NCBI GenBank assembly: GCA_020444325.1
Contig: JAHLLD010000002.1
Location: 286,882 to 350,881 of the forward strand
Source: a bacterium
GTDB lineage: Bacteria > Bacteroidota > Ignavibacteria > SZUA-365
Direction of reading: 5' to 3'
Length of the DNA stretch: 64,000 nt
Shown in pieces: positions 1,954-56,235 of the stretch. Both the position numbers and the translations under genes were made by a program. The notes beneath the pieces are model-generated. The model searched no databases, was not told where the DNA came from, and saw nothing but the letters and a program-made list of their open reading frames with translations. Each line of letters starts with the position of its first letter. Position 1 is the first letter of the stretch.

Positions 1954-3231
1954 ATGCCGAAACTCCAGGAAAAACTGGCAGAAGTCTACGCTCCGAAACG
2001 CGATGAGATCAAGCAGCTCGTCAAGGAGCATGGCGACAAAGTCGTCTCTCAAGTAACTATCAAGCAGGTGTATGGCGGTATGCGCGGCGTAAAGGGCCTC
2101 GTCTGCGATACCTCCGTTGTTCCGCCGGACAAAGGACTTATTATTCGCGGTATCGAGCTGAAAGAGCTCACCGAGAAACTTCCCGAAGAAATTTTCTACC
2201 TCCTCCTCTCCGGATCGCTCCCGAATGACGAAGAGCTGGCTGATCTGCAGGCACAGCTGCGCGAGAAGCAGGACGTTCCCAGTTACGTTTGGGACGTGCT
2301 CAGCGCCATGCCGGCCGACTCGCATCCGATGGCCATGTTCAACACCGCCATTCTCGTCATGGAGAAGGAATCGGTGTTCCGTCAGCGCTATGACGAAGGC
2401 ATGAAGAAGGACGAGTACTGGATGGCAACGCTCGACGATGCCATTTCCATCGTCGCCAAGCTGCCGGCCATCGCCGCATGGATCTATCGCAAGCGTTTCG
2501 GCAAGGGCGAAGCCATCATGCCCGATCCGAAGCTCGACTGGGGCGCCAATTACGTGCACATGCTCGGACTCGGCGATCCCAACGGTGAATTCACCAAGTT
2601 CATGCGCCTCTACCTCGTTCTCCACAGCGACCACGAGGGTGGCAACGTCAGCGCGTTCTCGGCCGCGACGGTCAACAGCGCACTGTCCGATCTCTACTAT
2701 GCCATGTCGGCAGGACTCAACGGCCTCGCCGGTCCGCTGCATGGACTCGCGAACCAGGAATGCCTCAAGTGGATTCTCGACGTCAACAAGGAATTCGGCG
2801 GCGCACCGTCGAAAGAACAGCTCGAGAAGTTCGCGTGGGATACGCTCGATTCCGGAAAGGTGATTCCGGGTTACGGCCACGCCGTGCTGCGCATCACCGA
2901 CCCGCGCTTCGACGCCTTCCTCGCCTTCGGCAAGCAGTATTGCATGGATGATCCCGTGTTCCAGACCGTTTCCAACGTCTTTGACGTGGTCCCGGGTGTG
3001 CTGCGCCAGATCAAGAAGATCGCCGATCCCTGGCCAAACGTCGATGCCGGCTCCGGCGCCATGCTGTATCATTACGGACTCAAGGAGTTCTCCTACTACA
3101 CGGTGCTCTTCAGCGTCAGCCGCGCTCTGGGAATCGCATCCCAGGCAGTCGTCGCCCGCGCCTACGGACTCCCCATCACCCGTCCGAAATCCGTCCCCTC
3201 GTCATGGGTCAAGGATCAGATTAACAGTTAA
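1954..3231 (+). CDS. gltA: citrate synthase
   Basis: 425 aa. Strong similarity to type-I citrate synthases (GGMRG, LVLHSDHEGGNVSA, GYGHAVLR motifs). Full length. Confidence 0.92.
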   Translation: MPKLQEKLAEVYAPKRDEIKQLVKEHGDKVVSQVTIKQVYGGMRGVKGLVCDTSVVPPDKGLIIRGIELKELTEKLPEEIFYLLLSGSLPNDEELADLQAQLREKQDVPSYVWDVLSAMPADSHPMAMFNTAILVMEKESVFRQRYDEGMKKDEYWMATLDDAISIVAKLPAIAAWIYRKRFGKGEAIMPDPKLDWGANYVHMLGLGDPNGEFTKFMRLYLVLHSDHEGGNVSAFSAATVNSALSDLYYAMSAGLNGLAGPLHGLANQECLKWILDVNKEFGGAPSKEQLEKFAWDTLDSGKVIPGYGHAVLRITDPRFDAFLAFGKQYCMDDPVFQTVSNVFDVVPGVLRQIKKIADPWPNVDAGSGAMLYHYGLKEFSYYTVLFSVSRALGIASQAVVARAYGLPITRPKSVPSSWVKDQINS

Positions 3232-3260: not shown

Positions 3261-3500
3261 GGAAACCCTCGGTGTTACCGGGGGTTTCCTGCATACGGCA
3301 GATTGCAGATGACAAATTGCAGATGACAAATGGCAGATGACAAATTGCAGATGACAAATGGCAGATGGCAAATGACAAATGACCATCGTCCCCACGCAGA
3401 GCGTGTGGCCGATGAGCTAATCTGCCATCTGCGATCTGCCATCTGCAATTTGCAATTTGCAATCTGCAATCTGCAATCTGCAATCTGACATCTGCAATTT
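3261..3500. repeat. intergenic composite repeat: hairpin, direct 14-bp GCAGATGACAAA-type array, then an inverted heptamer (GCAATCT)n array
   Basis: Seen directly. A 13-bp-stem hairpin ggaaaccctcggt/accgggggtttcc at 3261-3289. About 5.5 tandem copies of [T/G]TGCAGATGACAAA at 3304-3381. A central spacer at 3383-3416, then about 12 tandem 7-mers of ATCTGC/CAATCTG at 3417-3500. The ATCTGC units are the reverse complement of the GCAGAT units on the left, giving a large imperfect palindrome. Confidence 0.85.
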
Positions 3501-6888: not shown

Positions 6889-8313
6889 CTAGAATAAGCG
6901 GCCCATCCAGTCGAGTATCCACGACGGGAAAACGCCGATCAGCAGGATGCCGACGGCTGAAAGCGCGAGTGCAAAGGCACTGCTGCCGGAAAACACCGTC
7001 TGCTGGGGCTGTTCCTCTGTCTGGAAGAACATTACCACGACGACACGGAGATAGTAGTACACCGAAATCATACTGGTAATGACACCGATAATGGTGAGCC
7101 AGGTGTAACCGCCTTCGATTGCGGCGACGAAGATGTAGTATTTCCCGAAGAAGCCCGCGAGCGGGGGGAGTCCCACCAGCGAGAACATGAATACTGCCAT
7201 CATCACCGCGAGCGTGGGACGGCGGTAATAAAGTCCTTTGAAGTTGTCGATGGCCGTGCCGCCCTGCTCACTGTTCTCGATCACCGAGGCGATGCCAAAG
7301 GCGCCGATGTTGGTGAGTGTGTAGGAGATCAGGTAGAACAGCACGCCTGCCAGACTGATCTCACCACCGACCGTGAGTCCGATAAGCATGTAGCCCGCAT
7401 GCGCAATGCTCGAGTATGCCAGCATGCGTTTGATGTTGCTCTGTGCCAGCGCCACGAGGTTTCCAATCAGCATCGAAGCGACAGAGAGGACGGCAAACAC
7501 GGTGTTGATGCTGCTCTCGGTGAACTTGAAGGTTGATGTGAAGACAAGCAGCAGGGCCGTGAAGGCCGCGGCCTTTGCGCCGGTGGACATGAAGGCGGAG
7601 ACCATCGTGGGGGAGCCTTCGTACACGTCGGGCACCCACATGTGAAAGGGGACGGCGCCGACCTTGAAGGCGAAGCCGACAAGCAGCAGTCCGACCCCTG
7701 TCAGGAACAGGGGATCGGACTTGAGTGCCTGCAGATTCTGAGCGATTTCAAGAATGTTGGTCGTACCGGTGCTGCCGTAAATCAACGCGATGCCGTAGAG
7801 AAAGAAGCCGGTGGCGAAGGCGCCGAGAAGGAAGTATTTCAGCGCGGCTTCGTTGGCTTTGAGAACGCGACGGCTGAAGCCGGCGAGCACGTAGAGGCAG
7901 ACAGACATCAGCTCGAGGCCGATAAAGGTCACGACGAGGTCGGTTCCTGTGGCAAGCGCCATCATTCCGCCGACTGCAAGGAGAATGAGATGGAAAAATT
8001 CTCCGTACGCGACACCGATTTTCGCGATGTATTCCCGGGAGAGCATTATGGTGAGTCCCGCCGCCACAAGGAATATGATATTGACAAGACTGGCGTAGCC
8101 GCCTGTCATCACCATCCCGTCGAAGGCTGTTCCACGGTGCGGGAACGTCCACACGGCCAGCGCGATGTTGCCGAGAATGCCGATGAGCGACACCCAGTAC
8201 TCCGCTGTGTGCGAATCTTTCTTCAGCGCATTGATCATGATAACGATCAACGCGAGGAGAATCGTACCGGCGACCGGTGCGGTGTTCAGCGTATCAGTGA
8301 GCAGTTGTTCCAT
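6889..8313 (-). CDS. nuoN: NADH-quinone oxidoreductase subunit N
   Basis: 474 aa polytopic membrane protein with a NuoN/ND2-like profile (TDLVVTFIGLELMSV, HMWVPDVYEGSPT). Confidence 0.9.
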   Translation of the reverse strand: MEQLLTDTLNTAPVAGTILLALIVIMINALKKDSHTAEYWVSLIGILGNIALAVWTFPHRGTAFDGMVMTGGYASLVNIIFLVAAGLTIMLSREYIAKIGVAYGEFFHLILLAVGGMMALATGTDLVVTFIGLELMSVCLYVLAGFSRRVLKANEAALKYFLLGAFATGFFLYGIALIYGSTGTTNILEIAQNLQALKSDPLFLTGVGLLLVGFAFKVGAVPFHMWVPDVYEGSPTMVSAFMSTGAKAAAFTALLLVFTSTFKFTESSINTVFAVLSVASMLIGNLVALAQSNIKRMLAYSSIAHAGYMLIGLTVGGEISLAGVLFYLISYTLTNIGAFGIASVIENSEQGGTAIDNFKGLYYRRPTLAVMMAVFMFSLVGLPPLAGFFGKYYIFVAAIEGGYTWLTIIGVITSMISVYYYLRVVVVMFFQTEEQPQQTVFSGSSAFALALSAVGILLIGVFPSWILDWMGRLF

Positions 8314-17352: not shown

Positions 17353-17428
17353 TGGAGCCATCCATCGGACTCGAACCGACGACCTGCTCATTACGAGTGA
17401 GCTGCTCTACCAACTGAGCTAGGATGGC
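17353..17428 (-). tRNA. tRNA-Thr (anticodon CGT)
   Basis: The reverse complement folds as a canonical cloverleaf: GCCATCC-TA-GCTC AGTTGGTA GAGC-A-GCTCA CTCGTAA TGAGC-AGGTC-GTCGG TTCGAGT CCGAT-GGATGGC-T-CCA. The 7/7 acceptor stem is perfect. Anticodon loop CTCGTAA gives CGU, reading ACG. CCA is encoded. Confidence 0.88.
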
Positions 17429-17591
17429 GAGTCAACAAATATAGGAGCGATGCAAGATAAATGCAACAAGCTGCGCTCAACGGGAACACGGATGTTCACC
17501 CGTCTTCGTCCTCGCTACGCTCGGACTTCGCCGCGGCAGGCCGGAGGAAAGGAGAGGCCCGATTTGCCAGCAGTGACTGTAGCGGTTGACA

Positions 17592-17658
17592 AATTCGGAT
17601 TCCCCCAGTCTCCGCGAAGATTCGTATAATCCGTGGAGATCCGTGTTCCCCTTGATTG
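17592..17658. repeat. degenerate partial copy of the AATCCGTG...CCCTTGATTG palindromic intergenic element
   Basis: aattcggattc...aatccgtggagatccgtgttccccttgattg matches the right arm of the element at 32680-32835 (aaaatccgtaggatccgtgagaatccgtgttaccattgattg). Confidence 0.45.
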
Positions 17659-17890
17659 CGCTGATTGTGGCCTTTTTCGGAAAAGATTTTTCTCTTACCT
17701 TTTAATAATACCGCATTCTGAGCGGGAAGTAGTTGCGGTTCCCTGCTGTGTTCCTTCCCTCCGCATTGAAAGGTGAGTGAAGAACATGTACCGGTACTGA
17801 GCCTGTAAGCTGCAGGATCACCGGAGGCGGAGCTACGACATAGATTGATCGATTGATAACGTCATATTATTACCTGATAGGAAAACTTCC

Positions 17891-19039
17891 ATGTCTTATC
17901 TCTTCACATCCGAATCCGTATCCGAAGGACATCCGGACAAAGTCTGCGATGCGATTTCCGATGCGGTGCTCGACAGTATTCTTCGTGACGATCCGCAGGC
18001 GCGGGTGGCCTGCGAGTGCTTTACGACGACAGGTTTCGTGCTGGTCGGCGGTGAGATTACCACGGACGCGTATGTGGACGTGCAGGAAATCGTACGCGAG
18101 ACGGTACGCGAGATCGGTTATACGGATCCCAAGTATCGCTTCGACGCAGACAGCTGCGGCGTCGCATCGCATATTCACCAGCAGTCTCCCGACATTTTCC
18201 GCGGCGTGAAAGGCGGCGGTGCGGGCGACCAGGGTATCATGTTCGGCTACGCGACGAACGCGACTCCCGAATTCATGCCGCGTCCGATTCTCTACTCCCA
18301 CAAGCTGGTGCAGCGGCTCGCCGAGATCAGGAAGAATGAGCCGAAGCTCATGCCGTACCTACGTCCCGATGCGAAGTCACAGGTGACTTTTGAGTATGAG
18401 GGACGCGAAGCGAAGCGTGTGCATACCATCGTCGTATCTACGCAGCATGATCCGAGCGTCTCCCAGAAGCAGATCAAAGAGGATGTGCGTGAGCATGTGA
18501 TTGAAAAAGTCTTTCCCGAGGAATTGCTCGAGGGACGCGTCAAGCTGCATGTGAATCCCACGGGACGATTTGAAATTGGTGGCCCCCACGGGGATTCTGG
18601 ACTGACGGGACGCAAGATCATCGTCGACACGTACGGTGGATGGGCTCCCCATGGCGGCGGCGCGTTCAGCGGTAAGGATCCGTCGAAAGTGGACCGCAGT
18701 GCAGCATACGCCACGCGTCATCTCGCGAAGAACCTCGTCGCAGCTGGTGTGGCGGACGAATGCACGATTCAGATCGGCTACGCCATCGGCGTGGCCAAAC
18801 CGGTGTCGGTGCATGTCGATACGCACGGCACGGCGAAGAACGGCGTCACCGATACCGATATCGAGCGCTGGGTGCAGAAGAACGTGGACCTGACGCCGGC
18901 CGGTATTATCGAACGGCTGAAACTGCGTCGTCCCATCTACCGCGCAACCGCAGCGTACGGACACTTCGGGCGCAGCGAGAAGACGTTCACCTGGGAGAAA
19001 CTCGACATGGTGAAAGACATCAAGAAGAAGCTGGTATAG
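17891..19039 (+). CDS. metK: S-adenosylmethionine synthetase
   Basis: 382 aa. Highly conserved MetK motifs ([43 protein letters not shown]). Confidence 0.95.
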
Positions 19040-30518: not shown

Positions 30519-31271
30519 ATGCTAACGTTGTACCTGGCATGTCTCGTTTTCGGCGGCGTGCTGCTGACCATCTCGCTCTTTGCTGGAGGGGATGCGGATG
30601 CGGACGTGGATCACGGCATGGATCTGCAGGGTGATGTCGATATGGACCACTCCATCGATCTGCATGGTGACGTCGACATGGACCATACGCTGGATCTCCA
30701 GGGTGACGTGGATACCGCGGTCGATCTCCAGGCTGAATTCGGGGAAGGGGACCTCCCGGCGGATATGACAGTGGACGGGGGACATCCGGCCGTGGACACG
30801 GTGCAGGATATTGAGAGTGGGGGACATGGGACTTCCGCGCTGTCCGCTGCCTTCGAATTTTTCAGCTTCCGCAATATGGTGTACATGACCACGTTTTTCG
30901 GTTTGACCGGGAGCGTGTTAAGCTGGCTCACCATGCCGTTCGGACTTACCCTCGGGTCCTCCATCGGCATGGGACTGTTTGCCGGGGTCGTCGGCCATCG
31001 ATTCATGCGCTACCTCAAAGGCTCGGAATCCGGCGACGCCCTGCATATCGCCAGCCTCATCGGGCACGTTGCGGTCGTGACGCTGCCGGTGACGAAATTC
31101 CGTCGCGGGAAGGTGCGTGTCGAGGCGGCGGGGCAAATCGTAGAGCTGCTTTCGCTGCTGCACGAATCCAGCGAGGCGGACGAAGTGCGACCGGGGGACC
31201 GCGTGTTCATCCTTGCTCTGGAAAAGGATGTGGTCCTGGTTGACAAAGGGGATTTTCTCGAGGAACGCTGA
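30519..31271 (+). CDS. NfeD-like membrane protein (flotillin-associated) with an Asp/His-rich tandem-repeat insert
   Basis: About 251 aa. N-terminal TM helix. C-terminal OB-fold segment (KVRVEAAGQIVELL...PGDRVFILALEKDVVLV), typical of short NfeD/YqiJ proteins. 49 nt upstream of the flotillin gene. Contains four 12-aa D.D.DH..DLQG repeats. Confidence 0.68.
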   Translation: MLTLYLACLVFGGVLLTISLFAGGDADADVDHGMDLQGDVDMDHSIDLHGDVDMDHTLDLQGDVDTAVDLQAEFGEGDLPADMTVDGGHPAVDTVQDIESGGHGTSALSAAFEFFSFRNMVYMTTFFGLTGSVLSWLTMPFGLTLGSSIGMGLFAGVVGHRFMRYLKGSESGDALHIASLIGHVAVVTLPVTKFRRGKVRVEAAGQIVELLSLLHESSEADEVRPGDRVFILALEKDVVLVDKGDFLEER

Positions 31272-31319: not shown

Positions 31320-32681
31320 ATGGAAGAATTCATCGTATCAATTTTCGGTATCGCGCTGTTCGCGATCATCGTCATCATGGTTGCCATCAGCCGTTTGCTT
31401 CTGATCTGTCATCCCAACGAAGTCATCGTCCTTTCCGGACGCAAGCGCAAACTCTCGGACGGTTCCATGGTCGGGTACCGTCTCATCCGCGGGGGACGCG
31501 CGATTCGCGTGCCGCTGATCGAGAAAGCCGCGCGCATGTCTCTTGAAACCATTCCTCTCGACCTGAGCGTCATGAACGCATATTCCAACGGGGGTATTCC
31601 ACTCAAAGTGGAGGCGATCGCCAATATCAAGATCGACAGCAGCGAGCCAACTTTTGGTAATGCCGTCGAACGTTTTCTCGGGAAATCCATGGCGGAGATA
31701 CATGAAATCGCAAAGGACACACTCGAGGGTAACCTGCGTGGCGTACTCGCAACACTGACCCCCGAAGAAGTCAACGACGATCGCCTCAAATTCGCCGGCA
31801 GTTTGATTGAAGAGGCGGATACCGATCTGAAGGCGCTCGGACTGCAGCTCGATACCCTGAAAATACAGAATGTCTCCGACGACGCCGGATATCTCGACAG
31901 CATCGGCCGCAGGAAAACCGCGGAGGTGCTTTCGAATGCGCGTAAGGCGGAAGCCGAAAGGAAGTCTGAAGCTGAGCAGTCCGAAGCCGATGCGCAGCAG
32001 AGGGCCGAGGTGGCCAAGGCCAATGCGAAGAAGGAAATCGAATCCGCGCAGATCAATGCCGAACGCACTATCAATGTAACCAAGGCCAAGGCGCAGCAGG
32101 ACGTTGAGATCGAGAATAACAACCTCCGCATCAAGAAGGCGGAACTCGAGCGCGAAGCGATCATCAAGGAGAAAGAAGCGGAAGTCGCCGGAGAAAAGGC
32201 GCGCGTTGTGTACGAGCAGGCCATGGAGCAGGAACGCATCGAACTGCAGAAAAAGCGTCTCACCGCCGATGTCATCGAACCGGCCCGCGCGAAGAAGGAG
32301 GCCATGGAACTAGAGGCCAAGGGCGACGCCGCCAAGATCATTGAAAACGGACTCGCGAACGTGAACATCCTCAACCAGATGATTAGCGCGTACAAGACGG
32401 CAGAAGGCGACGGAGAGAAGGTGTTCATCCTGAACATGCTGCCGGAAATCATCAATCAGCTGGTCGGTACTGTCGGCAAGCTCAACATCGACAAAATTTC
32501 TGTGGTGGACAGCGGCAGCGGCAAAACGGTTGGTGGACTCATGGGCCAGCTCCCTTCCGCGGTGATTTCCCTCAACGAAATCATTGAAAACGCCACAGGC
32601 GTGAACATCCTCAGCAATTTCAAAAAAGAAGAACTCCAGGCCGCCACGAAAAAAATCGACAATCTGACCCCCGAACAATAA
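31320..32681 (+). CDS. flotillin (SPFH/band-7 family, YqiK/FloA-like)
   Basis: 453 aa. N-terminal TM helix, SPFH domain, then a long Ala/Glu/Lys-rich coiled-coil (EA repeats) and a flotillin C-terminal region. Confidence 0.9.
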   Translation: MEEFIVSIFGIALFAIIVIMVAISRLLLICHPNEVIVLSGRKRKLSDGSMVGYRLIRGGRAIRVPLIEKAARMSLETIPLDLSVMNAYSNGGIPLKVEAIANIKIDSSEPTFGNAVERFLGKSMAEIHEIAKDTLEGNLRGVLATLTPEEVNDDRLKFAGSLIEEADTDLKALGLQLDTLKIQNVSDDAGYLDSIGRRKTAEVLSNARKAEAERKSEAEQSEADAQQRAEVAKANAKKEIESAQINAERTINVTKAKAQQDVEIENNNLRIKKAELEREAIIKEKEAEVAGEKARVVYEQAMEQERIELQKKRLTADVIEPARAKKEAMELEAKGDAAKIIENGLANVNILNQMISAYKTAEGDGEKVFILNMLPEIINQLVGTVGKLNIDKISVVDSGSGKTVGGLMGQLPSAVISLNEIIENATGVNILSNFKKEELQAATKKIDNLTPEQ

Positions 32682-32835
32682 TCAAGGGGAACATCAATCA
32701 AGGGGAACACAGATCTGCGCGGATTCTACGGATTTGCACGGAGAAGGTAGAAAGAACTCGCCATAATCTCCGTGAAAATCCGTAGGATCCGTGAGAATCC
32801 GTGTTACCATTGATTGATGTTACCCCTTGATTGTA
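32680..32835. repeat. ~155-bp palindromic intergenic element (MITE/REP-like), also a likely transcription stop for the flotillin gene
   Basis: Terminal inverted repeats aatcaaggggaacatcaatcaaggggaacac (32680-32710) and gtgttaccattgattgatgttaccccttgattg (32801-32833). Internal AATCCG[T] repeats in opposite orientations. A related degenerate copy lies at 17592-17658. Confidence 0.6.
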
Positions 32836-32899
32836 ATTGCCTGTTGGTCGCGGGAAGTGTACTTTTCAGGATTGCTCGTTTTTTACCGAAGAGGAACAC

Positions 32900-33514
32900 G
32901 TGAAAAAGTATTTCGTCCTGACCATTGCCGCACTCATGGTAACTGCCTGCGGCAGCGATAAAGATAAGACCGAACAGTCCGCCCAGCAGGAAGAATCTCC
33001 TGTCGTACGCATGCCCTTTGCGGAGGATTCCGAGGTCCCGGAGCCGTCTCCGGATGCGCTCGCCCCTGCGGAGAATATTCCGGATGAGGATCTGCCCGAT
33101 CTGAGCAAGCTCAGTACTGTTGAGCGGCAGATCTTCCGGAGAACGGTAAGTATCCAGGTCCCGTACTACGACGCGCTGGAGAAATGGGCCGATGCTGCCA
33201 ACGATATCAAGAAGGGAAGTGACGCCGCAAAGTCCCTTCGCAAATACATCGCGCTGCAGAATGATTTCGCCATCGAGATGCAGCAGATCGATGCGGAGTT
33301 CGCCGGGAAGATTGATGCGAACTATCAGGGTAGCCAGGAATTCCAGCGTGTGCTGGATGCCTACCTGAACGATCCGGATTTGATGCGGCGCACGGATTAC
33401 ATCATGCGTAGTTACATGTCTCTGATTCAGCGTTTCAAGGATGATCCTGCATGTAAGGATGTATTCGCCGATATCGAGCGTATGGCGCGTGAGGCGCAGC
33501 AGCAGATGCAGTAA
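32900..33514 (+). CDS. hypothetical lipoprotein
   Basis: About 204 aa from a GTG start (VKKYFVLTIAALMVTACGSDKDK). Signal peptide plus lipobox-like MVTAC. Acidic, helical. Start uncertain; the ORF track begins at 32837. Confidence 0.4.
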   Translation: MKKYFVLTIAALMVTACGSDKDKTEQSAQQEESPVVRMPFAEDSEVPEPSPDALAPAENIPDEDLPDLSKLSTVERQIFRRTVSIQVPYYDALEKWADAANDIKKGSDAAKSLRKYIALQNDFAIEMQQIDAEFAGKIDANYQGSQEFQRVLDAYLNDPDLMRRTDYIMRSYMSLIQRFKDDPACKDVFADIERMAREAQQQMQ

Positions 33515-35464: not shown

Positions 35465-35496
35465 CGAATGCAGTCAAATCCCCGAATTGGCAATTT

Positions 35497-35925
35497 GCAG
35501 ATGGCAGATTGCAGATTACAGATTGCAGATTACAGATTACAGATTACAGATTGCAGATGGCAGATGGCAGATGGCAGATTGCAAATTGGGCAGGAGCGGG
35601 GATTGCTTCCCACGGCGTGTCCCCGGATGCTTGCCTGGCGCCCGGAAGCAATCCCTGATTTGCGGAACATGGAAGTATTGAAAGATCGAATAATGGAATC
35701 ATAAGGATGATGTCATATTTCCATTTTCCATCATTTCATTTTTCCATACTCAGCGTTCCTCCGGTAGCACTCAGAATCAGGGATTGCTTCCGGGCTTTGC
35801 GCAGGTATCCGGGAACACGCCGAGGGAAGCAATCCCTGCTCCTGCCGAGTTTGTAATCTGTAATCTGTAATCTGTAATCTGTAATCTGCAATCTGCCATA
35901 TGGAATATGGAATCTGTTATCTGGA
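35497..35925. repeat. ~430-bp composite inverted-repeat element: heptamer (RCAGATK)n array plus hairpin module on each arm, flanking a 106-bp AT-rich core
   Basis: Left arm 35497-35660: 13 tandem heptamers (GCAGATG/GCAGATT/ACAGATT), then ggcaggagcgGGGATTGCTTCC-33nt-GGAAGCAATCCCtgatt. Right arm 35767-35925 is the ~85%-identical reverse complement (tcagGGATTGCTTCC...GGAAGCAATCCCtgctcctgcc, then (GTAATCT)n). The core 35661-35766 is about 70% AT. The element lies between divergent ABC-F (-) and M20 peptidase (+) starts. Confidence 0.85.
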
Positions 35926-55397: not shown

Positions 55398-56120
55398 GTG
55401 ATTTCAATAATCATCCCGACGCTTGACGAAGAAAAACTGCTGCCGCAGATTCTTGCGCAGTTCCCCGCAGAACTGTGCCGCGCACATGATGTGGAAATCA
55501 TCATCAGTGACGGGGGCAGCAAGGATGCGAGCACACAGATCGCGCGGGAGCATGGAGCCGTCGTCGTTGAGCATGAGGGCGATCACCGGCAGACCATTGC
55601 CGAAGGAAGGAATCGCGGTGCGGAGGTTGCCCGGGGCGACATCCTCGTTTTCATCAACGCCGACATCCGTATCAGTGATGTGTCCTCCTTTTTCCGGGAT
55701 ATCGAAAGCTGTCTGCAGCGTGATACTGTCAGCGGTGTCACGGCAGTGGTGAGGGTGTTTCCCGAAGAGGAGATCCTCTCGGACCGCATGTTCCATTTCT
55801 GGCACAATCATTACGTGCGCTTTCTCAACGCCATCGGCGAGGGAATGGGGAGGGGAGAATGCCAGGTGCTGCGCAGGGAAATGTTCCGAAGCATCGGCGG
55901 CTATAACGCCTCGATGGTCGCGGGCGAGGATTACGACCTGTTTCGCCGTGTGCGGAAAAAAGGGAAAGTCGTCATGATGCCGCATACGGTGATCTATGAA
56001 TCCCCCAGGCGCTTCCGTAAGTATGGTTACCTGCACATTTTGTGGGGCTGGACGAGAAATGCGCTGGCGGTGATTTTCCGGAATAAGTCCTCAAGTGAGG
56101 AATGGGAAGCAGTGCGCTGA
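55398..56120 (+). CDS. family 2 glycosyltransferase
   Basis: 240 aa. GT2 fold motifs (IIIPTLDEE, DGGSKD, FINAD, acidic ED motif). Confidence 0.8.
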   Translation: MISIIIPTLDEEKLLPQILAQFPAELCRAHDVEIIISDGGSKDASTQIAREHGAVVVEHEGDHRQTIAEGRNRGAEVARGDILVFINADIRISDVSSFFRDIESCLQRDTVSGVTAVVRVFPEEEILSDRMFHFWHNHYVRFLNAIGEGMGRGECQVLRREMFRSIGGYNASMVAGEDYDLFRRVRKKGKVVMMPHTVIYESPRRFRKYGYLHILWGWTRNALAVIFRNKSSSEEWEAVR

Positions 56121-56162
56121 GGAATGGGAAGCAGTGCGCTGAGGAATGGGAAGCAGTGCGCT
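56097..56162 (+). repeat. perfect 22-bp tandem repeat x3 (gaggaatgggaagcagtgcgct) spanning the GT2 stop codon
   Basis: Seen directly: three identical consecutive copies at 56097-56118, 56119-56140 and 56141-56162. The first copy encodes the C-terminal EEWEAVR-stop of the GT2 gene. Confidence 0.92.
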
Positions 56163-56235
56163 GAGGCTTGGAATTCAGTTCGCCTGGCGGCATATTTTAT
56201 ATGGAGTTGTTCAATCTCGTCTGCAGGTGAAAAGT

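Follow-up and report, generated by a model that had tools for sequence, protein, structure and literature searches.

Small palindromic repeats dispersed between genes are an ordinary and already known kind of element. The Correia repeat-enclosed elements (CREE/NEMIS) of Neisseria are about 100-155 bp long, carry terminal inverted repeats, occur in hundreds of copies and are accompanied by a TA duplication; they often lie at gene ends and are co-transcribed as long hairpins, which RNase III cleaves and which influence the 3' ends of mRNAs. The ERIC/IRU, RUP and BOX repeats are found in intergenic DNA that is transcribed; they are imperfect palindromes some 100-130 bp long and of debated function. 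Here we describe an element of this kind, e32k, a non-coding palindrome that lies directly after a flotillin gene in a 64,000-nucleotide stretch of a genome of the Ignavibacteria (contig JAHLLD010000002.1, positions 286,882 to 350,881; this whole stretch is hereafter the window), together with a second, older copy, e17k. Like the Correia elements, e32k is non-coding and intergenic, is of similar size, has terminal inverted repeats and lies at a gene end. It differs from them in that its flanks are 4 bp (TAAT, with CGCT at the second copy) and not TA, in its phased units of about 10 nt ending in CRGAT (R, purine), in its doubled termini and in having two known copies; there is no sequence relationship, and its ends have no visible resemblance to the Correia repeat. 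The ERIC/IRU, RUP and BOX repeats are similar to e32k in size and location, but they come from other host clades, have no phased decamer units and are unrelated in sequence.

Three further systems invite comparison. Repetitive extragenic palindromes (REPs) and REPINs are dispersed extragenic palindromes, often downstream of genes, that have been proposed to be non-autonomous mobile DNA mobilised by RAYT transposases; a REPIN consists of two inverted copies of a short REP, itself an imperfect palindrome, and no target duplications have been reported (PMC3116915, PMC3337134). As a REPIN does, e32k folds into a hairpin downstream of a gene, but its 15-nt terminal repeat CAATCAAGGGGAACA is not self-complementary, 4-bp flanking repeats are present, and no RAYT gene was seen. 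The cyanobacterial STRR and TAACTGA arrays (Beggiatoaceae, Cyanobacteria and Bacteroidetes) consist of intergenic 5-11-nt units and are lineage-specific and patchy across phyla; they are absent at orthologous sites in sister species, assemblies break inside them, and they are mostly one-sided direct repeats, with one of 170 sets being indirect (PMC4679880). The class of repeats found in the window shares with these heptamer arrays the intergenic, lineage-specific short tandem units, the patchy distribution, the absence from orthologous sites in sister species and the assembly breaks inside arrays, and differs in that two arrays face each other in fixed polarity and a unique terminal sequence is common to the copies. 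Finally, the 23S rRNA intervening sequence of Coxiella has a terminal stem of 28 bp, and its open reading frame (ORF) for the S23p protein is preceded by GACAGAT heptamers in tandem, and such intervening sequences with S23p, in Coxiella and Leptospira, are regarded as selfish, their RNA being cut by RNase III (PMC4990558). The long terminal stem formed by inverted repeats and the GACAGAT-type heptamers recall our element; e32k, in contrast, is intergenic between protein-coding genes and not in rRNA, has no ORF and is much smaller, and the link to this system rests only on PF05635 (S23p) genes that relatives of the organism carry inside similar palindromes.

The element and its parts are the following.
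32678-32836, no strand: the whole palindromic element e32k, 159 bp, non-coding (from arm complementarity, fold and stops in six frames).
32679-32710, plus strand: doubled left terminal repeat, TAATCAAGGGGAACA-T-CAATCAAGGGGAACAC, with a 16-nt period (15-mer matches and Tandem Repeats Finder).
32703-32808, no strand: inner hairpin, of the CRGAT-decamer class (match to covariance model R1, array detection and 10-nt period).
32802-32833, minus strand: doubled right terminal repeat, TGTTACCATTGATTG-A-TGTTACCCCTTGATTG, the mirror of the left one (15-mer matches and Tandem Repeats Finder).

An initial annotation of the window had placed a palindromic element with terminal inverted repeats at 32680-32835, next to flotillin, and a related copy next to metK. 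The sequence is as it described, and both neighbours are correctly named, flotillin carrying PF01145 and metK carrying PF00438, PF02772 and PF02773. The predicted RNA fold of 32670-32845 is one long hairpin of -94.9 kcal/mol, compared with -41.9 ± 4.1 for 200 dinucleotide shuffles (z = -12.8, none of the 200 as good), and the minus-strand fold has z = -11.4. Over their 59 nt the two arms (32686-32744 and 32767-32825) show 83% complementarity, and a 22-nt spacer separates them. The consensus terminal repeat (C/T)AATCAAGGGGAACA occurs at both ends, in inverted orientation, in both copies. At the left end of e32k it is present as TAATCAAGGGGAACA (32679-32693, one mismatch to the 15-mer) and as the exact CAATCAAGGGGAACA (32695-32709); at the right end, on the minus strand, as CAATCAATGGTAACA (32802-32816) and CAATCAAGGGGTAAC (32819-32833). 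Between these termini, the 5' arm contains three units of about 10 nt ending in CRGAT (ACAGAT, GCGGAT and ACGGAT), mirrored by ATCCGT units on the 3' arm. Tandem Repeats Finder reports periods of 16 x 2.3 (32673-32709), 10 x 3.6 (32769-32803) and 17 x 1.9 (32802-32833). Stop codons break all six reading frames. The start of the element overlaps the flotillin stop codon TAA (32679-32681), the 16-nt period extends into the final codons of flotillin, and a lipoprotein gene follows downstream. Across the region, 601 of 601 bases agree with a Logan assembly made independently from the same organism, so e32k is not an assembly artefact. We also observed that the ribosome-binding site (RBS) and start context of the lipoprotein gene (32889-32902, AAGAGGAACACGTG) resembles the core of the terminal repeat (AAGGGGAACAC); as a matter of speculation, the right arm of e32k could in principle pair with it.

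The second copy lies 15 kb away, between a tRNA-Thr gene (minus strand, 17353-17428) and metK (plus strand, start at 17891), which are divergent.
17474-17662, no strand: second, older copy, e17k (15-mer match, alignment and fold).

The element proper spans 17478-17658 (181 bp), with CGCT on either side at 17474-17477 and 17659-17662. It has an exact terminal 15-mer at 17644-17658 on the minus strand, and the 50 nt beside it match the left arm of e32k at 84% identity; overall, the two copies are 84-89% identical over 36-50 nt and have in common the non-repetitive 16-mer CAATCAAGGGGAACAC. The similarity had been proposed to be real unless it fell to chance level under shuffling, and it stays well above that level: the local alignment score is 60, compared with 16.2 ± 2.1 (maximum 28) for 1000 shuffles and with 30 for the best of 1263 other real 189-nt windows. 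The left end of e17k is degenerate (CGCTCAACGGGAACACGGAT, from 17474) and pairs with the right end, the centre is longer than that of e32k, and the predicted fold is -82.8 kcal/mol (z = -3.3). Judged by these comparisons, e17k is a full palindrome with a decayed left arm, and the older of the two copies. The diverged copy near metK is thus homologous, as had been claimed, but it is not a partial copy restricted to 17592-17658, and it probably does not belong to the metK leader, to which it had been assigned. Conservation places a promoter-like block, TTTTAATAATACCGCATTCTG (17700-17720), between e17k and metK, and an attenuator role of e17k is unlikely because e17k lies upstream of this block. 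A metK attenuator or riboswitch was considered and rejected on the grounds of that position, a separate invariant leader block lying further downstream. The latter is an observation of its own: a 35-nt block in the metK-ahcY 5' leader, ACCGGTACTGAGCCTGTAAGCTGCAGGATCACCGG (17790-17824), is invariant in the window and in three relatives while its flanks are variable, has no Rfam match at E ≤ 1, and is a candidate uncatalogued riboswitch or leader.

Both copies are bordered by 4-bp direct repeats at the same register: TAAT at e32k and CGCT at e17k.
32679-32682, no strand: left flanking 4-bp direct repeat TAAT, candidate target-site duplication (boundary-register scan).
32834-32837, no strand: right flanking 4-bp direct repeat TAAT (boundary-register scan).

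The scan was post hoc and covered 289 boundary registers, with the ends set at CAAGGGG (left) and CCCCTTGATTG (right). Only the TAAT/CGCT register and its sub-registers were consistent, and 0.1% of flank shuffles gave any 4-nt register consistent in both copies (p ≈ 0.001, allowing for the 289 registers). These repeats are the main evidence from which we infer, for two copies, insertion with target duplication. With terminal inverted repeats, a flanking duplication (in two copies and post hoc) and a small, non-coding body (159 and 181 bp), e32k and e17k share these three features with miniature inverted-repeat transposable elements (MITEs).

At the flotillin end, comparison with relatives shows what e32k has displaced. 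The flotillin of the window is 100% identical to KQI65_04085 (annotated as a hypothetical protein), and its nearest relatives come from metagenome-assembled genomes (MAGs) labelled Bacteroidetes/Bacteroidota or Ignavibacteria. In five syntenic relatives, with flotillins 88-92% identical, the gene order is a 250-aa protein, flotillin, a lipoprotein and an ABC-F gene. The element is missing after flotillin in all five, and BLAST searches with e32k and e17k found no copy in some 108 kb of the relatives' sequence. Each of the five has instead a 14-15-bp hairpin of -24 to -28 kcal/mol after flotillin, with a T-rich tail in three; in two (L140 and L143), one-sided heptamer arrays precede this terminator hairpin. 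The e32k stem starts at the flotillin stop codon and is about five times longer than the terminators of the relatives. Directly after it begins a block conserved among the relatives, TTGCCTGTTG…GGGAAGTGTACTTT (32837-32865 in the window), which is promoter-like and belongs to the next gene. An outgrowth of the ancestral flotillin terminator was considered as the origin of e32k and is excluded by polarity, CGGATT standing on the 5' arm here and AATCCG on the 5' arm of the relatives' hairpins. A consensus terminator scan from the end of flotillin (32681) to the next gene found no terminator-like site, while canonical terminators are present elsewhere in this organism, and e32k is the only strong stem-loop in that interval. 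As a separate observation, an in-frame 36-nt tandem repeat in three copies (30603-30709) lies within the ORF of 250-270 aa that precedes flotillin and belongs to no Pfam family.

Our preferred explanation, to which we give an even chance, is that e32k is a non-coding, MITE-like dispersed palindrome whose transcript hairpin would stand in for the lost flotillin terminator. The element is a CRGAT inner hairpin capped by the family-specific terminal inverted repeats CAATCAAGGGGAACA, doubled in e32k; in this scheme, an enzyme acting in trans would have copied it into at least two intergenic sites of the genome. Each insertion would have left a 4-bp duplication (TAAT and CGCT), the copy on the metK side being the older one and having decayed since; the predicted empty sites would read …CCCGAACAATAATTGCCTGTTGG… and …AACAAGCTGCGCTGATTGTGG…. 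Because e32k begins at the flotillin stop codon, it should be transcribed with flotillin, and the 3' end of the transcript would fold into a duplex of about 70 bp. Since e32k is located where the relatives have a GC hairpin and a T-run, it most likely forms the structure at the 3' end of the flotillin mRNA, and the duplex could signal pausing or termination, hold up 3' exonucleases, or be cut by the double-strand-specific RNase III. It may also act as an insulator between flotillin and the promoter-like block that belongs to the next gene.

The inner hairpin connects e32k to a wider set of sequences. The starting point was a search with the 19-mer AATCAAGGGGAACACRGAT, all matches to which were chance RBS-plus-ATG contexts except a single one, a hairpin with (GAACACGGAT)n arms in a Burkholderiales MAG. 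The contig concerned (L130) has two hairpins, 4.4 kb apart (2913-3077 and 7419-7562), the second with (GAACGCAGAT)n arms. One of them is made of CACGGAT units and the other of CGCAGAT units, and we note that both unit types are found together in the window as well. A 14-mer gave at least 120 matches in viral contigs, dominated by chance. The pattern CRCRGATGAACRCRGATG retrieved at least 120 stretches from IMG/VR (L149-L268). Among the matches listed (1.1 Mb), 170 arrays have three or more CRGAT units, with a 10-nt step in 295 of 351 cases, and 28 array pairs lie within 400 nt of each other. All 28 run 5'-CRGAT…ATCYG-3' (Y, pyrimidine) and none in reverse, as expected of elements defined by terminal inverted repeats; a control of 1.17 Mb from unrelated viral loci contained one array and no pair. 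The consensus is AACCRCRGAT-GAACRCRGAT-GNACRCRGAT, a loop, and the mirror image. R/Y changes co-occur between the arms (36 double-change cells, compared with 17.2 ± 3.3 in shuffles, none of 500 reaching the observed value), which is no proof of selection on RNA structure because the pattern arises in every DNA palindrome that is copied whole. Rfam has no family for e32k or for the class and returned only sub-threshold look-alikes of miRNA precursors, typical of any long hairpin, and a literature search by CRGAT unit strings found nothing relevant. The units bear only a partial resemblance to the IHF site, the CsrA site, the DnaA box and the Pho box, and since their GGA core is not conserved (CAGAT variants exist), these identifications were set aside.

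We built a covariance model, R1, from 19 viral-contig hairpins of IMG/VR and none from the window. R1 matches the inner hairpin of e32k (32703-32808) with 30.9 bits on the minus strand (E = 3.8e-6) and 29.9 bits on the plus strand (E = 7e-6), and the Burkholderiales hairpins with 52-59 bits; it found no match to the decayed e17k at E ≤ 10 and none in 108 kb from the closest relatives of the window organism. As in the class, e32k has 3 + 3 units (32710-32801) in CRGAT-then-ATCYG order with a 10-nt period. It departs from the class in its stem base (GGGGAAC…GTTACC, not AACC…GGTT), in its spacers (CTGCG, TCTA and TTGCA, not GAAC) and in its extra outer repeat, so the inner hairpin is best described, from its sequence, as a variant and not a typical member. 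The scattered occurrence of the class is better explained by gain through transfer than by vertical conservation. We considered whether widely spaced CRGAT array pairs could be the ends of larger transposons and rejected this, the enclosed genes being ordinary phage or host genes.

Two further palindromes of the window belong here.
3290-3500, no strand: related palindrome of a different family, with GCAGATG/ACAAATG arms mirrored by AATCTGC units (R1 match and Tandem Repeats Finder).
35480-35925, no strand: related composite palindrome whose arms are GCAGATT/ACAGATT heptamers; it separates the divergent genes for ABC-F and an M20 peptidase (CRGAT-then-ATCYG arrays).

R1 matches the first at 3341-3452 (25.7 bits, E = 1e-4) and the second only weakly (35638-35797, E ~ 0.1). 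The arms of these heptamer palindromes differ in unit length, 14 versus 7 nt, and Logan contigs of this organism end inside both. The initial annotation had counted at least two distinct families of structured repeats in the window. The families are not clearly distinct: because a single R1 model matches both e32k and 3341-3452, with CRGAT units in the same polarity, we consider the two to be variants of one class that crosses phyla. The ABC-F/M20 intergenic site is itself variable among relatives. One has no palindrome there (L138, 7577-7750), another a small hairpin of ATGAAAA units (L141, 14167-14441) and a third AATCYGY-type heptamers (L140, 4890-5579), while the window has the 440-nt composite palindrome. 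Elsewhere in the window, a perfect 22-nt tandem repeat, TGAGGAATGGGAAGCAGTGCGC x 3.2 (56096-56166), starts in the last codons of an ORF, whose stop lies at the first unit boundary.

Several observations weigh against a MITE-like element that supplies the flotillin 3' end. On the side of mobility, e32k replaces about 125 nt of ancestral spacer plus terminator and is not a clean insertion, and there is for this reason no true empty site at flotillin; the MITE reading of the initial annotation is plausible in view of the 4-bp repeats at the same register and the absence of the element after flotillin in five relatives. The 4-bp repeats come from two copies, the inferred ends are asymmetric (CAAGGGG on the left, CCCCTTGATTG on the right), and class members in viral contigs have no consistent flanking duplication. 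In 79 kb of the source genome (the window plus 15 kb of adjoining sequence from Logan contigs of this organism) there are only two copies, BLAST of both against the extra flank having found no third, and neither a transposase nor a larger element bearing these ends was seen. No copy was found with the exact 19-mer in the GTDB species representatives (6 matches) or JGI metagenomes (10 matches), neither of which holds the source genome. Plasmid and phage collections searched by BLASTN in 'distant' mode yielded no match, and a concatenated six-frame translation used as a protein query, for copies mis-called as small ORFs, gave nothing. On the side of function, no U-tract follows the e32k stem, GUAAUUGCCUGUUGG standing there instead, and divergent genes flank two of the window's four class palindromes (e17k and the one at 35.5 kb), a setting in which no 3'-end role applies. 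Intrinsic termination by e32k is therefore unproven, and a canonical terminator role is unsupported because the stem has no U-tract. Of the earlier suggestion that these repeats act as terminators or attenuators, what stands is that e32k is the only strong stem-loop after flotillin; the canonical terminator lacks support and the attenuator at metK is unlikely.

The tRNA-Thr/metK site in relatives bears directly on how such palindromes arise. Each of three relatives has its own long palindrome there, with units GCGAAACCGAAA, CATGNN, or CGATAT/CGCAAT, and, as far as the sequences tell, this also counts against the preferred explanation, since differing palindromes at one site fit turnover in situ or a hot spot as well as they fit transposition. 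One of the three palindromes (L145, 4949-5770) encloses a gene of PF05635 (23S rRNA intervening-sequence protein, S23p), and a second PF05635 gene lies inside a palindrome with tandem-unit arms in another relative (L144, 2700-3240).

A first alternative, which we regard as rather improbable, is that the palindromes are products of their own sites, formed and turned over locally in this clade by replication slippage and intrastrand template switching around existing hairpins, with copies kept alike by gene conversion or a shared sequence bias. The different units at tRNA-Thr/metK in each of the three relatives would be natural under this view, as would the one-sided heptamer arrays beside the flotillin terminator in L140 and L143, the tandem doubling of the e32k termini on both arms with a 16-nt period that enters flotillin codons, and the unequal unit lengths (14 versus 7 nt) of the heptamer palindromes. 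Tandem repeats of 5-11 nt, mostly heptamers, are abundant and slippage-prone in some genomes, at least as Mrazek 2007 is summarised in PMC4679880. Local formation does not readily account, however, for the 16-mer CAATCAAGGGGAACAC, which contains no tandem unit and is identical at loci 15 kb apart, for 4-bp flanking repeats at the same register in both copies, for an arm polarity opposite to that of the relatives' terminator stems, or for the same architecture in distant phyla and viral contigs.

A second alternative is that CRGAT arrays and hairpins are a cis-acting signal, recognised by a dedicated protein and kept by selection in the host or phage for a role in processing, stability or termination; we think this unlikely. 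In its favour are the conservation of the class consensus across unrelated contigs, the terminator position of e32k and the compensatory R/Y changes (36 versus 17.2 ± 3.3), although this last pattern is expected of any DNA palindrome copied as a unit. The gene context in viral contigs points the same way: for 26 hairpins, the tight gaps are between genes both on the plus strand in 6 cases, both on the minus strand in 5 and convergent in 5, and clearly divergent in none. Single-armed arrays are mostly co-oriented with neighbouring genes, with 34 starts and 10 stops downstream and 43 stops and 17 starts upstream (crude gene calls), and this suggests that they may have a strand-specific role distinct from that of the hairpin form. 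Many of the IMG/VR arrays (e.g. L173, L254, L160 and L226) are single-armed and co-oriented along the contig, often just before an RBS and start codon. Against such a signal, 108 kb of sequence from the closest relatives contain no member of the class, which is thus not a conserved host requirement, the e17k and 35.5-kb palindromes stand between divergent genes, e17k is decaying, and no partner protein was identified.

That e32k is an ORF-less derivative of hairpin cassettes with an S23p (PF05635) gene, its arms having remained after gene loss, is very improbable: PF05635 genes do lie inside tandem-unit palindromes in L145 (at the tRNA-Thr/metK site) and L144, and the Coxiella intervening sequence has GACAGAT heptamers, a CRGAT-type unit (PMC4990558), but tblastn found no PF05635 homologue in the window or in the extra flank of 15 kb, other units make up the arms around the PF05635 genes of the relatives, and the genes between widely spaced array pairs in viral contigs are ordinary ones.

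Returning to the preferred explanation, in which e32k is a mobile palindrome that took over the flotillin 3' end, the locus is of value for annotation: e32k explains the missing flotillin terminator, and arrays of this kind mark breaks of short-read assemblies in this organism. It is also a clear case of a repeat replacing a canonical terminator at a conserved gene junction. The wider value lies in arrays and hairpins of CRGAT units that keep a fixed polarity in distant bacteria and viral contigs and have no Rfam match. We offer as a tentative and somewhat doubtful proposal that this class is widespread (Bacteroidota, Burkholderiales and many viral contigs) and apparently uncatalogued, that its units are recognised by a dedicated transposase-like or RNA-binding protein, that the families of the window are two variants of one system, and that this system may relate to S23p/PF05635 cassettes. 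Should the class prove to have a partner protein dedicated to it or a mechanism of mobility, this would add something new to the genome biology of bacteria and phages.

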